A DNA stretch of 52,475 nucleotides, from positions 1-52,475 of the forward strand of contig DAOPMC010000003.1 in the NCBI GenBank assembly GCA_035392025.1, read 5' to 3'. The DNA comes from Bacilli bacterium (lineage in GTDB: Bacteria > Bacillota_I > Bacilli_A > RF39 > UBA660). Positions within the stretch are counted from its first letter, which is position 1. Every line of letters begins with the position of its first letter. The position numbers and the translations under genes were made by a program. Under the pieces are notes generated by a model. That model did no database searches. It was given only the letters and a program-made list of their open reading frames with translations, and was not told where the DNA came from. This document shows positions 25,945-30,391 of the stretch, piece by piece.

Positions 25945-26151
25945 TTATTTCTCATTTAACCAATCATAATCAAATATTTCTATTGATTTTTCGTTTTTCG
26001 TTTTTAAATGTTCCTCAAATGTTTTCCCAAAAACAAGTAAGAATCCTCTACCTGTTGGTTTATCACAAACATATTTCTTTTGACACTCTAAACAATAGCA
26101 ATCTTTCTCTGGTTTTTTTAAATGACATTTGTATTTCTTCTTAATCGACAT
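25945..26151 (-). CDS. small Cys-rich (zinc-ribbon-like) protein
   Basis: CH..x8..CxC..C..x6..C pattern in 68 aa. Confidence 0.4.
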   Translation of the reverse strand: MSIKKKYKCHLKKPEKDCYCLECQKKYVCDKPTGRGFLLVFGKTFEEHLKTKNEKSIEIFDYDWLNEK

Positions 26152-26506
26152 TTATATTGTAATACTCACCTGCCGATCTATAATATACCGTTTTCGTGGA
26201 ATAATTAAATGGTAATGCTCTAATATGTTTCAATACTACTTCGACAATTATTTTTTCACCAAAATTTAATTTACCTTCTTTTGATACTATAATATCAACT
26301 TTATCTTTTATATTTGAAATAATATTATCAGCTTCAATTTTTGCATCTTCAGTATAACCACCATTTATCTCAATAATTTCTATAACTTTATTTCTAATGT
26401 GAACTGTCTTTTGTTGAACAGCTACTTCTTCTGTAAATAAAAACATACATATCATTACAGTGAAAGATATAAATATGATTAGCAATATATCAAATATATT
26501 TTTCAT
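26141..26506 (-). CDS. N-terminally anchored small protein (TadE/pseudopilin-like position)
   Basis: 121 aa with a single N-terminal hydrophobic helix. Adjacent to platform genes. Confidence 0.4.
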   Translation of the reverse strand: MKNIFDILLIIFISFTVMICMFLFTEEVAVQQKTVHIRNKVIEIIEINGGYTEDAKIEADNIISNIKDKVDIIVSKEGKLNFGEKIIVEVVLKHIRALPFNYSTKTVYYRSAGEYYNINVD

Positions 26507-26508
26507 AC

Positions 26509-27201
26509 CTAAAATTTCACTTCCTCAAACATAGAGATAAACATAAATATTGCCATTCCAAATATCATAACTAACATTGTCAGAATCGTGAAATTCGGAT
26601 ATAACCATAAAAGTCTTTTCTTTGTTTCAATGACTTCCTCTATTTCATTATCATATAATTGAGAAATCATACTCTCAAGCGATATTAAGTGCTTTTTATT
26701 CATAGCGTGTTCGGAAAATGTGTAAAGCAACGTCATCACTTGGTATGATTCTATAAACTCCATATTTCTTGAAAAATTATTAAATGGTGTTATCGTTTTA
26801 TCTACTCTTATTTCTTCTATTAATTGGATTAAGTATTTTTTAATAGGATCATCCGTATATTCAATCATCTTACTTAAAGAATTATATATGTTATTTGTTC
26901 TTATTAATATTAATAATTTTTTTACAAATGATGGAAACATTCTTCTTTTAATAGCAATTAGCTTTTTTCTTCTTTTTTTAGTTGAAAAATATTGATATTT
27001 GTATACACCTATTCCAACAAAAACACTTATTATCATTAAATAAAAATTATTGTAATAATAACCAATAAAAAGACATACAAAGAAAGAAATCAAACTCATC
27101 ATTATTCTATTTTTGAGAGCTTTTTTATAATGTATACCCATCCAACCTAACAAGTTCTTTAAATCTTCTTCAACGAAGAAATTCCTAATTATTGATTTCA
27201 T
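26509..27201 (-). CDS. TadC/TadB-like (T2SS-F family) pilus platform protein
   Basis: Paired N-terminal TM helices, a cytoplasmic helical domain and a C-terminal TM helix. The pattern matches T2SSF-domain proteins. Confidence 0.55.
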   Translation of the reverse strand: MKSIIRNFFVEEDLKNLLGWMGIHYKKALKNRIMMSLISFFVCLFIGYYYNNFYLMIISVFVGIGVYKYQYFSTKKRRKKLIAIKRRMFPSFVKKLLILIRTNNIYNSLSKMIEYTDDPIKKYLIQLIEEIRVDKTITPFNNFSRNMEFIESYQVMTLLYTFSEHAMNKKHLISLESMISQLYDNEIEEVIETKKRLLWLYPNFTILTMLVMIFGMAIFMFISMFEEVKF

Positions 27202-27692
27202 TGCAAACTTCCTATTAATTTTAACTTATGTTTATATATTAAAATATTAATAAAGTTATTCATTTCCGATGCGATAATCCAATTATTTGAATATATAAGT
27301 AAATATCTATTATCTGGAAAAAGCAAATATATTTTCCTATTTAAAATATCAATTCTTATTCTTTCCAATTGATATACTCTTAAATAATTATCTATATTGG
27401 AATTATTTGCCCCAGATAATTCTATCGTTTCAACTGCTTTTCTATCATTGATAATTTTTAAATCTTTACCAACTTTTTTAATTTCCTCTAAAATACATTT
27501 CATAATACTTTCTAATTCATTATAAGTTTCAAAATATAATGTTTTAGTATCTTGAAATGATTTATCTAAAGTAGTAGTAACATTCAATAAATGTAGATCT
27601 ATTTCCAGAAATTTTGACTCGTTTATGTTTAAAAAAACCAATATATCATTTATTGATTTAAAACACATTTTATGATTTATTATTTGTCGCAT
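27198..27692 (-). CDS. hypothetical protein
   Basis: 164-aa ORF coupled in the operon. Confidence 0.45.
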   Translation of the reverse strand: MRQIINHKMCFKSINDILVFLNINESKFLEIDLHLLNVTTTLDKSFQDTKTLYFETYNELESIMKCILEEIKKVGKDLKIINDRKAVETIELSGANNSNIDNYLRVYQLERIRIDILNRKIYLLFPDNRYLLIYSNNWIIASEMNNFINILIYKHKLKLIGSLQ

Positions 27693-27913: not shown

Positions 27914-28728
27914 TATTTATAACCTCCTTCACCAATAGAATCATCTCGATATATATTTTCAATTCTCTTTATGATAATTAAGTTTGCAATTATAATAAAA
28001 ATCATTATTGTTGTTCCAAAACTATTCATATAATCCATGTATATAGATGGAATCATAAATTTCAAAGCAATAGGCATAAACATACACAAAAAAAGAACTA
28101 CATAAAAGTTAGTTCTCCATTCTTTCTTATACTTATGAAATTTATCCTTTTTTATTTTTAACATATTCATTTCTTCTGAAATAATATGTAGTACTGTTCC
28201 TGCATCACTTTGACCATGTATATCAAATAATTCTAATGTTTGATTAAATAAAGTTATTGTTCTATTGTTATATTTTTCATTAAAATTACTGAATGCTTCA
28301 GTTATCTTACTACCACTCTCAATTTTACTAATTACTATCTCTAAATCTTCTTTTACAGGAGTATCTAAAAATTTTATTACTTCTTTTAAAGATGAGAAAA
28401 CATTGTTAAAAGTCATTAACATACTTATCTGGCTTGTATATATAGTCAGCTGCGATAAAATATATTGCTCGTATACAAGTTTCTTTGAATTAAGTACAAT
28501 TTCATTTATTAAAAAAACTGTTATTACAAATGATATAATTGAGCAATAAAATATATTAGTAAATATTAAATAGAGAAAAGCCATTGTAATAAAAAATATC
28601 ATTACGAACTTAAATAAGTAATCAGATATACTTGTTTTCTTGTTCATATATCTATATGCTTTGCTATAATTTCCAAAGAAATATTTATTGTTTATATTCT
28701 TTATAATGCGAATAATTTTTCCCACCAA
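27913..28728 (-). CDS. TadB/TadC-like (T2SS-F family) pilus platform protein
   Basis: Central domain LKEVIKFLDTPVKEDLEIVISKIESGSKITEAFSNF..TLFNQTLELFDIHGQSDAGTVLHIISEEM, flanked by TM helices. Typical T2SSF architecture. Confidence 0.6.
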   Translation of the reverse strand: MVGKIIRIIKNINNKYFFGNYSKAYRYMNKKTSISDYLFKFVMIFFITMAFLYLIFTNIFYCSIISFVITVFLINEIVLNSKKLVYEQYILSQLTIYTSQISMLMTFNNVFSSLKEVIKFLDTPVKEDLEIVISKIESGSKITEAFSNFNEKYNNRTITLFNQTLELFDIHGQSDAGTVLHIISEEMNMLKIKKDKFHKYKKEWRTNFYVVLFLCMFMPIALKFMIPSIYMDYMNSFGTTIMIFIIIANLIIIKRIENIYRDDSIGEGGYK

Positions 28729-29803
28729 AATATTCCTCCTTTATAAATTTTTCAATATCACCATTTAAGACTTCGTATGCAATTAATTTATCAAATAACT
28801 TCTTTGTCATTTTCCCAAACTTATAATTTACCGTGTACTCATAACCATTATTAACTTTTGCTATATTAACATTTCGTTTATATATAGTATTTATTATTGC
28901 ACCCTTATCAGTATAAGCTACATATTCTACTACTTCTGCAACATATCTCTTTACACCATCTGAATCAACCTTGTGGTCAAGATGAATACCAATATCAAAA
29001 TTATCACAAATCATTGATCCCAATAAATTTTGGTCTAATTGATATTTTTCTTTACACATATGGATTATTCTCTCAACATTGCTTTTAGCGTTGCTGCTAT
29101 GCAAAGTTGTAATTATATGATGACCACTCAATATACTTTTCAACATTGTATATGCTTCTGATCCTCTTGTTTCAGAAACTATTATCCAATCGGGATTATT
29201 TCGTAATCCTGCCTTCAGCAATTCATCAAAACCTATTGCTTTTTCTAACTTGTTATTTGTCTGCCATGATAAAATATCTTTATCTTTATAAATCTCTTTT
29301 AAATGAGTATCTAATGTATCTTCAATTAATATTATCTTATCATTGTCAGGAATAAAACCAACTAAATATTTCTGCATTTCTGTTTTACCTGAACCTGTTT
29401 TACCAGATATTAATATATTGCATTTAGCTTTTATACAAGCCTCTAAAAAAGAAAACACCGATAGAGGTGCTATATCCTTTTGAAACTTTCTAATCTTTAA
29501 TTCAGCTTGACTACTTCTTAAACTTAATGTTAAACCATACGGTGCTAAACTTCTGTGAACAGAATTTATTCTTAATTTAGGAAATTCAGTATCTAGTATT
29601 GGTTCTTCATCATTAAATTGCCTGTTATTTTGATAAGTTAATTGTTTGACATAATTTTCAACAATATCTGGATCAACTTCTTTTTCTAACTTATATCTAC
29701 CTCTTTTATTATCTTGAATATAAATGTCTTTTCCATTAAAACTAATATCGGTAATATTAGGATTCTTTAGCAATTCACTTAATATATCTTTCTCAAAGTC
29801 CAT
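28685..29803 (-). CDS. CpaF/TadA/VirB11-family secretion ATPase
   Basis: Walker A (ISGKTGSGKT), Asp box (IILIEDTLD), Walker B/His box (NPDWIIVSETRGSEA .. SGHHIITTLHS). Confidence 0.85.
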   Translation of the reverse strand: MDFEKDILSELLKNPNITDISFNGKDIYIQDNKRGRYKLEKEVDPDIVENYVKQLTYQNNRQFNDEEPILDTEFPKLRINSVHRSLAPYGLTLSLRSSQAELKIRKFQKDIAPLSVFSFLEACIKAKCNILISGKTGSGKTEMQKYLVGFIPDNDKIILIEDTLDTHLKEIYKDKDILSWQTNNKLEKAIGFDELLKAGLRNNPDWIIVSETRGSEAYTMLKSILSGHHIITTLHSSNAKSNVERIIHMCKEKYQLDQNLLGSMICDNFDIGIHLDHKVDSDGVKRYVAEVVEYVAYTDKGAIINTIYKRNVNIAKVNNGYEYTVNYKFGKMTKKLFDKLIAYEVLNGDIEKFIKEEYFGGKNYSHYKEYKQ

Positions 29804-29996
29804 TTTCTATTTCCGTTTCTTCATCAGGAACTGTATCTAATCCATACATCTTATCAAAATGTTTATCTTCAGCTCTTGAAAATGCAATATTAAATTGCTC
29901 TTCCATTATTTTTTTATTTCCAACATAATAACCATCTTTTTTCATTGTTATTTCTGACAATTCATATTCTTCTAATTCATCAATCTTTTCATCCAT
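29793..29996 (-). CDS. hypothetical small acidic protein
   Basis: 67-aa ORF coupled to the ATPase gene. Confidence 0.4.
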   Translation of the reverse strand: MDEKIDELEEYELSEITMKKDGYYVGNKKIMEEQFNIAFSRAEDKHFDKMYGLDTVPDEETEIENGL

Positions 29997-29998
29997 AA

Positions 29999-30391
29999 TT
30001 AATCACTCCTTTTTACTATTTGATAAGAAAAAGTATTATCCATAATGCTCTCTTTTTCAAATAGACCTTTAATAGTTCTAATAGTAATTGTAACAATATC
30101 ATCATTAACAGCTATATCAAATTCTACATCATCAATATCAATATTATTATTAACCAGATAATTTTCTACGGTAGATAATATTAATGCTTGATCACTAAAA
30201 GTTATAATGTCATAAGCCTTTAAATCACCGAGATTAACACTCTCTTTTGTAGTATTTCTAACCCCAAAATTATTACTAGATGTAACTAATTTTTGTGAAC
30301 ATGCAAAACTAATTGCAAATAATAGTATGAGAACAAAGAAAGAAATAAAAATAGACTTTATTATAAAACTAAAATCCATTCTACTCACCAC
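29999..30391 (-). CDS. N-terminally anchored small protein
   Basis: 130 aa with a single N-terminal TM/signal segment. Confidence 0.45.
   Translation of the reverse strand: MVSRMDFSFIIKSIFISFFVLILLFAISFACSQKLVTSSNNFGVRNTTKESVNLGDLKAYDIITFSDQALILSTVENYLVNNNIDIDDVEFDIAVNDDIVTITIRTIKGLFEKESIMDNTFSYQIVKRSD

Follow-up and report, generated by a model that had tools for sequence, protein, structure and literature searches.

What does a pilus-type ATPase, followed by what look like its membrane partners, do inside the conjugation operon of a Gram-positive mobile element? The question is raised by a locus on contig DAOPMC010000003.1 of a Bacilli bacterium (GenBank assembly GCA_035392025.1), of which we analysed positions 1 to 52,475; this whole stretch of 52,475 nucleotides is referred to as the window. 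It has a G+C content of ~26%, and its minus strand holds nearly all of the long open reading frames (ORFs), including all genes of the locus, its adhesin and its candidate subunits. A reading made from the sequence alone, here called the original prediction, had seen a streamlined Tad-like filament machine acting as an accessory of an integrative and conjugative element (ICE). The ATPase and platform of this locus are homologous to those of type IV filament machines, the genes form a block conserved among conjugation operons, and the block lies within an ICE. We put at roughly 0.55 the probability that the region encodes the membrane core of a Tad/Epd-like type IV filament machine, assembling a short adhesin-displaying fibre for mating-pair formation.

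The gene of the presumed motor (28685-29803) codes for a 372-amino acid (aa) secretion ATPase of the T2SSE family, the counterpart of gene 37 ('putative VirB11') of pLS20. The motifs GKTGSGKT, IILIEDTLD and SGHHIITTLHS, by which the original prediction had recognised a CpaF-like ATPase at this place, are read in its translation, and the Walker A, Asp box, Walker B and His box of T2SSE/PilB-type hexameric secretion ATPases are all present. A search against Pfam assigned the protein to T2SSE with an E-value of 3.7e-28 (98.7 bits, cut-off 24.9). Among the NCBIfam models, the best score was that of VirB11 (TIGR02788), at 131 bits, which concerns the C-terminal domain only and is below the equivalog cut-off of 250; TrbB (TIGR02782; 95 bits, cut-off 305), the TadA-type conjugal ATPase model TIGR03819 (109 bits, cut-off 373) and FlaI likewise matched under their thresholds. 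Sequence comparison with the PDB gave archaeal GspE, CpaF (query residues 9-292) and FlaI as best matches, GspE and CpaF matching over the full length whereas VirB11 aligns from residue 116 on, that is, with the C-terminal domain only. The AlphaFold2 (AF2) model of the protein (pLDDT 89.4) retrieved TadA/CpaF first in Foldseek (E 2.5e-27, TM 0.71 over ~360 columns), followed by FlaI and archaeal GspE (~1e-24 to 1e-25), VirB11 (~3e-20) and then PilB/PilT.

A neighbour-joining (NJ) tree was computed from 22 non-archaeal sequences (290 columns, 200 bootstraps), with references taken from annotated plasmids and with R64 PilQ and TraJ as outgroups. It groups the window ATPase, in a clade supported at 94%, with those of pLS20 (gene 37), pXO2, Enterococcus faecium pEMA120, a Clostridium perfringens plasmid and metagenomic relatives. 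The sister of this clade (70%) is the ATPase of a Tad-like locus on pXO1, which adjoins cpaB and a gene for a TadZ-like AAA ATPase; proteobacterial CpaF does not join the family. VirB11 and TrbB form separate clades with 100% support each and, because the window ATPase lies outside both, membership of a VirB11 clade, the outcome that would have counted against the original prediction, was not found. Profiles, predicted fold and tree together support an ATPase of CpaF/FlaI type and not of VirB11 type. The ATPase has many relatives (570 at E up to 1e-10), and a profile scan of genome contigs with the ATPase alignment revealed at least 4 loci.

The ATPase gene is followed by two genes for membrane proteins, so that the order ATPase, platform, platform is that of tadA-tadB-tadC. 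The first protein, in the TadB position (27913-28728), has 271 aa with hydrophobic segments at ~34-71 and 206-251, and the second, in the TadC position (26509-27201), has 230 aa with such segments at ~28-46 and 197-215; in each a soluble part of ~130 aa lies between them, which is the layout of TadB and TadC. When the alignments of the two families, drawn from seven loci, were compared with hhalign, the probability was 98.1% with an E-value of 9.5e-14 over the cytoplasmic domain, and the two proteins are paralogues, as TadB and TadC are.

The family of the 271-aa protein could be placed by several routes. Pfam T2SSF was found in 37 of its 42 members (best 1.1e-5) and no other family recurs. 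Because the window protein itself scores below the Pfam cut-off (E 0.13 over profile positions 17-125 of 125; 12.7 bits, cut-off 25.2), its T2SSF membership rests on family-level and structural evidence. A HMMER search with the family profile against 1.84 billion representative proteins returned 192 clusters at E up to 0.001, most of them of 300-330 aa and matched almost over their full length, and T2SSF was present in 55 of 80 sampled matches (best 1.4e-22). With the AF2 model of the protein (pLDDT 78.3), the top 14 Foldseek matches were EpsF, OutF, PilC and SpoIIIAB, all with probability 1.0 and with modest E-values (0.026-0.4); target-normalised TM-scores were 0.64-0.79 against isolated cytoplasmic domains, with root-mean-square deviations mostly of 2.2-2.9 Å, and the full-length PilC model aligned poorly (TM 0.27). 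The family aligned by hhalign with the pXO1 protein in TadB position, which follows a CpaF-like ATPase (97.5%, E 5e-12, 226 columns), and more weakly with proteobacterial TadB (E 1.9e-4), and a profile search of PDB sequences placed PilC first (E 0.14). Profiles and models point to a divergent, single-domain T2SSF (GspF/PilC/TadB) family. The 230-aa family gave no direct match to Pfam T2SSF, no hhalign match to the pXO1 TadB-position protein and nothing relevant in the PDB profile search, and it is assigned to T2SSF through its paralogue. PHROGs yielded nothing useful for the membrane or the small proteins. The two small polytopic proteins of T2SS-F/TadB-TadC layout in the original prediction are thus borne out by segments, paralogy and family-level T2SSF; profile and fold speak for the 271-aa family directly, and for the 230-aa family paralogy does so.

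These genes recur together in other conjugative elements. In every locus examined, the ATPase gene is preceded by genes for a large secreted protein and then an N-anchored protein of ~125 aa, and is followed by those for the two membrane proteins and an N-anchored protein of ~120 aa, with a 45-70-aa gene nearby. The order is the same in comparison loci L001-L010 (our own handles), in pLS20 (tie/gene 34, then 36, 37, 38, 39, 40, 41), pXO2, pEMA120 and the C. perfringens plasmid, and the same block is present in pAW63, from CDS26 to CDS19 (PMC1196294). It sits within the transfer operon, with the same orientation, between regulators and the T4SS (type IV secretion system) genes. Since it is conserved with the same gene order in the conjugation region of the pLS20 and pXO2/pAW63 families, the module is not an optional accessory, as had been supposed in the original prediction; these comparisons indicate that it is integral to conjugation operons across a broad family of conjugative elements in Bacillota, including many metagenomic ICEs. 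The paper on the pLS20 family describes gene 37 as 'putative VirB11' and genes 36 and 38-41 as 'unknown', and the ATPase of pLS20/pXO2-type plasmids has been annotated as VirB11 since 2005, so that the anomaly was already known, though read differently. We found no paper in the open-access literature linking the block genes of pLS20, pXO2 or pCP13 to T2SSF, Tad or pilins. As a sequence the module had been seen before, and its nature appears to be unrecognised in that literature.

The N-anchored proteins on either side of the core have 130 aa (29999-30391, directly upstream of the ATPase gene; counterpart of pLS20 gene 36) and 121 aa (26141-26506; counterpart of gene 40). Each begins with a hydrophobic helix, in agreement with the single-helix proteins predicted at both places, and each keeps its position in 11 of 11 aligned loci. 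The 121-aa protein is a remote relative of DUF4320, which matches 8 of the 11 members of its family (best E 7e-4) and on which we found no literature; it is a candidate pseudopilin or assembly factor. The 130-aa protein matches no family in Pfam or NCBIfam, and no relationship between the two families was detectable.

The block is carried by an element that we consider a genuine ICE, because an empty site in a related contig (L026) and the junction sequences delimit it at ~712-40341 (39.6 kb, unstranded), as its presence within an ICE had been predicted. L026 is 99.5-99.9% identical to the window across both flanks, the junctions overlap in a 2-bp CA, and CA is the crossover dinucleotide at both (near 711 and 40342). 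A large serine recombinase (ORF 692-2419), whose reading frame extends across the right junction, integrated the element into a gene for a class B penicillin-binding protein (PBP), which is split within the transpeptidase domain into an N-terminal part (40329-41585) and a C-terminal part (34-621); the intact version in L026 has 635 aa. Of the class B PBP genes it is the second, located downstream of mraZ-mraW-ftsL-PBP in a spoVD-like position, and the host genes around it are mraZ, mraW, PBP, topA and rnhB. Pfam scans covered the minus-strand window ORFs of at least 100 aa, except a 272-aa host ORF (51642-52460). Besides the recombinase, the element was found to carry genes for a giant SNF2/ArdC protein, a type IV coupling protein, a relaxase-like protein, an M23 peptidase, VirB4, VirB6-like and VirB2-like proteins, a single-stranded DNA-binding protein and a diversity-generating retroelement (DGR), and its VirB3-, VirB6- and VirB4-like genes lie elsewhere in the element, away from the motor. 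Megablast of positions 24000-34000 against plasmid and phage collections and a search of Rfam returned no match.

If a filament is assembled, its most plausible subunit is a 45-aa hydrophobic protein of the pLS20 gene 41 family (32972-33109), with the sequence MSENTNTLFWVICGAVIVVGIFTLINTNLGEAITGIFDHFNGLFQ. Its ORF is preceded, 8 nt upstream, by AGGAGG, a strong ribosome-binding site of Shine-Dalgarno type. The protein aligns with the product of pLS20 gene 41 (MLDQNADRMYWVIGAVLVVGALIG...) and with its pXO2, pEMA120 and C. perfringens counterparts, MLDQNxDRxWWxIGAV being aligned against MSENTNTLFWVICGAV in the comparison of the window with the pLS20/pXO2 block. Homologues are present in every locus of the closer subgroup; distant loci hold architecturally similar small genes whose products have N-termini of MGEKGG- or MGEIKG/Q-type, and the Turicibacter protein has a weak match to Flp1_like (E 0.005). 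Database members of the family, 44-71 aa long and spread across Bacillota, number 163; all are named 'hypothetical' and none has a Pfam domain. Neither Flp_Fap (PF04964) nor N_methyl matched the family; only the positive control, Sinorhizobium Flp, matched Flp_Fap. Given its 7-residue polar N-terminus followed by a hydrophobic helix, the lack of a Gly at -1 and the acidic residue that stands at position 3 in all members seen in the alignment, the subunit may need no prepilin peptidase.

The N-terminus of this small protein is used again elsewhere in the element. A 376-aa protein (22571-23701) has a subunit-like N-terminal 45 aa, 73% identical to the 45-aa protein, followed by BspA-type leucine-rich repeats (LRRs; Pfam LRR_5, 7e-33), and is a candidate minor subunit or adhesin; a 193-aa protein (21989-22570) has the same pilin-like N-terminus in front of a domain of no assigned family. 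Such reuse resembles, by analogy, minor pilins with adhesive domains. These three genes and a fourth at 36747-38438, taken up below, are pilin-like; all four lie outside the positions covered by the original prediction, which had seen no pilin.

Tandem duplication of the small subunit gene is seen in pLS20-like plasmids, where the two 47-aa copies are identical, and in a Clostridia metagenome-assembled genome, and the Turicibacter locus apparently holds a second copy running into masked sequence (L012:12131-12444; L008:7416-7749; L004:13400-13930). On the C. perfringens plasmid, the module has a gene for a CPBP-family (CAAX-type) intramembrane protease a few kb upstream (L013:3007-3447), and a fragment is likewise found upstream on pEMA120 (L016:935-1084); no counterpart was found in the window. 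A terminator-like hairpin with a T-run (33179-33206, minus strand) separates the subunit gene from a gene for a 163-aa protein, the L001 counterpart of which has weak Sigma70_r4 matches; pLS20-type operons use processive antitermination.

The large protein encoded upstream of the motor (30381-32264) is a secreted surface protein of 627 aa and the positional counterpart of Tie of pLS20. It is 92% identical to a protein of a close relative (L029) that carries PF27438 (PXO2_28_C). We compared it with Tie (L012:5396-7720), the SpaA-like adhesin of pEMA120 (L016:1934-5563) and an 858-aa protein of the C. perfringens plasmid (L013:5122-7698), and a weak, chainable similarity links its residues ~420-580 with the C-termini of all three; the N-terminal parts differ. 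The adhesins upstream of the motor have only this C-terminal domain in common, their heads being thioester/CnaB, SpaA-like or of no assigned type, which fits a shared docking domain. The loss of Tie lowers the transfer of pLS20 ~1000-fold in liquid, where this plasmid conjugates efficiently, and ~15-fold on solid medium, and Tie has no LPXTG motif, lipobox or wall-binding module, its C-terminal region being suspected as the anchor (PMC8092201). That suspected anchoring region is the part common to the window protein.

From homology and synteny we infer the following sequence of events. A hexameric T2SSE ATPase (372 aa) would act on a platform made of the paralogous 271-aa and 230-aa proteins, the core being flanked by the N-anchored accessory proteins of 130 and 121 aa. 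The ATP-driven movement of the platform would pull 45-aa subunits out of the membrane, perhaps without any processing, and these would form a polymer, either a thin fibre or a short pseudopilus, across the thick cell wall. The fibre may carry or position the Tie-like protein, through its conserved C-terminal domain, as well as the proteins with a subunit-like N-terminus, and the donor would then capture recipients, especially in liquid.

Several points weigh against this interpretation. None of these elements has been seen to produce a fibre, and the authors of the pLS20 work state that Gram-positive elements form no conjugative pili (PMC8557374, PMC11730352). The 45-aa protein lacks the motif of a class III signal peptide and does not match Flp_Fap, and an hhalign comparison of its family with the G-containing small proteins of the distant loci was not significant (29%). 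The 230-aa protein is T2SSF-like by transitivity only, and the deep ATPase branches are poorly separated in a tree by NJ only, of 22 sequences, none archaeal. A24 peptidase, TadZ, CpaB and TadE/F are all absent from the Pfam-scanned window ORFs. Finally, these elements also encode a VirB2/TrbC-like protein, which therefore leaves room for a VirB11-like role of the ATPase in a T4SS pilus.

Among the other explanations, the one that survives best dispenses with an exposed fibre: a pseudopilus piston of T2SS/Com type, or an insertion device, would push the Tie-like adhesin, or the T4SS, through the peptidoglycan. It would account for an adhesin gene that always stands before the motor and shares only its C-terminal domain across elements, and it agrees with the absence of a known anchor or sorting signal in Tie (PMC8092201) and with the presence of SpoIIIAB, the GspF-like protein of a non-pilus channel, among the structural matches of the platform. 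The adhesin, however, has an ordinary N-terminal signal peptide pointing to Sec export, and pilin-like N-termini fused to LRR or other domains fit incorporation into a polymer better. We regard a piston as unlikely, with the reservation that the data do not separate a short pseudopilus from a long pilus, so that it overlaps with the fibre preferred here.

Another explanation takes the literature annotation at its word and makes the ATPase a functional VirB11, docked under VirB4 and energising the T4SS channel or perhaps the assembly of a VirB2/TrbC-like protein, with the membrane proteins as T4SS parts. VirB11 is indeed its best-scoring NCBIfam model, a VirB2/TrbC-like gene adjoins a VirB6-like gene in these elements, and MOB-suite types these plasmids as MPF_T. 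That score is nevertheless far under the equivalog cut-off (131 versus 250) and limited to the C-terminal domain, the ATPase is outside the fully supported VirB11 and TrbB clades, its fold is nearer to CpaF and FlaI, and its immediate partners are T2SSF proteins, the VirB3-, VirB6- and VirB4-like genes being elsewhere in the element. To our knowledge, no described T4SS contains T2SSF proteins. A VirB11 role is on these grounds rather improbable. Very improbable, lastly, is a module of host-benefit cargo, such as an adhesion or colonisation pilus like the Tad pilus of Bifidobacterium, that takes no part in DNA transfer: adhesion is a common function of Tad pili and the ICE also carries a DGR-diversified prepilin-like adhesin and the BspA-type LRR protein, but the block is inside the transfer operon, in the same orientation and between regulators and T4SS genes, is conserved in all pLS20-family plasmids and in pXO2/pAW63, and adjoins an adhesin needed for pLS20 transfer (PMC8092201).

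A broader proposal, which we advance tentatively and hold to be somewhat doubtful, is that a Tad/Epd-derived motor serves a large class of elements (pLS20, pXO2/pAW63, plasmids of enterococci and clostridia, and ICEs) to build a conjugative fibre, with a near-leaderless, peptidase-independent pilin of ~45 aa and Tie-type adhesins docking by their C-terminal domain. Reviews hold that Gram-positive conjugation systems 'universally lack VirB11 homologs' and have no pili, and describe the capture of recipients by donors as largely unknown (PMC12857230, PMC8557374, PMC11730352). If true, the proposal would overturn this textbook view of Gram-positive T4SSs without pili and without 'VirB11', would account for efficient mating in liquid and for the anchoring of Tie, and would offer a hybrid stage between type IV filaments and T4SSs relevant to the origin of VirB11. 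By homology, the so-called VirB11 of pLS20/pXO2-type elements and its two 'unknown' membrane neighbours are the ATPase and platform core of a type IV filament machine, next to a conserved mini-subunit and an adhesin whose C-terminal domain is conserved. How Tie is held on the cell, and why mating in liquid works so well, become testable questions in the tractable pLS20, and the same reading bears on the typing of conjugation systems by mating-pair formation (MPF) genes and on the relation of VirB11 to pilus ATPases.

Between the two platform genes of the window lies an inserted pair (27198-27913): a gene for a 77-aa ribbon-helix-helix (RHH) protein (27680-27913) and an overlapping 164-aa ORF of no assigned family. 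The original prediction had rightly seen an RHH gene interleaved here and had called it MobC-like; it matches NikA-like RHH proteins (E 2.8e-7, above the Pfam cut-off), with weak MobA/MbpA similarity, and the MobC identity is rejected. The pair is present only in the window and in its 97%-identical relative (L029/L030), is absent from the other loci examined, and is a lineage-specific insertion. It may act as a relaxosome accessory, as a regulator or as a toxin-antitoxin-like pair.

The fourth pilin-like gene belongs to a complete DGR on the minus strand (34750-38438), which comprises a reverse transcriptase (RVT_1; 34750-35793), bAvd (35766-36143), a template repeat (TR; 36405-36525) and a variable repeat (VR; 36768-36888) at the 3' end of a 563-aa gene (36747-38438). 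TR and VR form a 121-nt repeat of 88% identity, and all core mismatches are at adenines of the TR (A to N). The 563-aa target has a canonical type IV prepilin N-terminus, ...KSGFTLIELL (KSG/FTLIELL; N_methyl 5.5e-8), and an FGE/C-type-lectin-like variable C-terminus. Since its relatives (L033) are encoded on chromosomes, next to a PilB-type ATPase and further large pilins of GF(A/T)L type (GFALAE), it is unlikely to be a subunit of the motor studied here, and more likely uses the PilB/PilD machine of the host. A stand-alone MutS domain I protein of 145 aa (38517-38954) adjoins this target.

Other parts of the element deserve mention. A 2182-aa protein (3609-10157) with an ArdC-like N-terminus and an SNF2/helicase core probably moves with the transferred DNA, and its 2344-aa counterpart directly follows the module in L008. 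A protein of 92 aa (21313-21591, minus strand), encoded upstream of the VirB6-like gene and predicted to cross the membrane twice, has counterparts named 'TrbC/VirB2 family protein' by PGAP on the C. perfringens plasmid, pXO2 and pEMA120 (L013:12433-12708, L014:12538-12816, L016:10455-10733), and the counterpart in L004 matches Pfam TrbC; a 2025 review holds that Gram-positive T4SSs, Patescibacteria excepted, have no VirB2. The ICE, by its place inside a spoVD-like PBP gene, could be a regulated intervening element of the kind found in sporulation genes.

The window module can be set beside four kinds of known systems. With VirB11/TrbB it shares the ATPase superfamily, a size of ~330-370 aa and a conjugation locus with VirB4 and VirD4; it differs in its separate clade, its weaker structural match, its scores below the family cut-offs and its partnership with T2SSF proteins. 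The thin pilus of R64 (IncI) and PAPI-1 provide a precedent for a type IV filament machine beside a T4SS, capturing recipients in liquid with variable adhesins (PMC12857230). The R64 machine consists of the PilQ ATPase, the PilR platform, the PilS pilin and the shufflon-varied PilV adhesin. The window likewise has genes of a putative type IV filament machine beside a T4SS on a conjugative element. R64, unlike the window, uses a type IVb system that brings its own prepilin peptidase, has a secretin and a platform of two domains, and acts in a diderm; its PilQ is an outgroup in the ATPase tree, and adhesin variation in the window, if connected at all, would come from the DGR rather than from a shufflon.

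The likeness to Tad/Flp systems is closer. Two separate platform genes with a single T2SSF domain each (TadB, TadC) define Tad systems according to Denise et al. 2019 (PMC6668835), and two such genes, the 230-aa one by way of its paralogue, adjoin the ATPase gene here. With Caulobacter CpaF-CpaG-CpaH and the Tad-like locus of pXO1, the module shares a CpaF-like ATPase fold, two contiguous single-domain platform paralogues downstream of the ATPase and a very short helical candidate subunit, and its platform is homologous over the full length to the pXO1 TadB-position protein. Unlike Tad/Flp, it lacks the Flp G/XXXXEY motif and the N-terminal extension of CpaF, and is embedded in a conjugation operon. 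No Peptidase_A24 (TadV), ParA-like TadZ/CpaE, CpaB/RcpC, TadE/F/G pseudopilin or secretin was found in the scanned window ORFs, which agrees with the absence of peptidase, TadZ/CpaE and secretin that the original prediction had remarked. Its streamlined Tad-like machine therefore stands as to architecture and not as to family: with no Flp motif, TadV, TadZ, CpaB or TadE/F found, the system is not a member of the Tad family as defined, and is best described as a member of the pLS20/pXO2 block with a Tad/Epd-like core. A more canonical Tad-like locus, and the nearest outgroup to the clade linked with conjugation, is that of pXO1 (L015:4962-10426). It holds cpaB and genes for a TadZ-like AAA ATPase, an ATPase of the CpaF/VirB11 family and a platform-like 'hypothetical protein' of 310 aa, together with two Flp-like genes of 67-68 aa whose leaders read ...SSENG/MLIAL.

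The closest kin are the blocks of pLS20 (genes 34-41) and of pXO2, pAW63 (CDS19-26) and pBT9727, whose genes have been described as 'putative VirB11' and 'unknown' and not as a filament machine. Unlike these plasmid-borne blocks, the window copy resides on an ICE that a serine recombinase has integrated, and has the RHH and 164-aa genes between its platform genes; its small subunit gene is upstream of the adhesin gene, that of pLS20 being downstream of gene 40, and the head of its adhesin is unrelated to the thioester domain of Tie. Common to all are an adhesin, an anchored protein of ~125 aa, the ATPase, membrane proteins of ~270 and ~240 aa, an anchored protein of ~120 aa and a small protein of 45-50 aa, and their ATPases form one clade with 94% bootstrap support.

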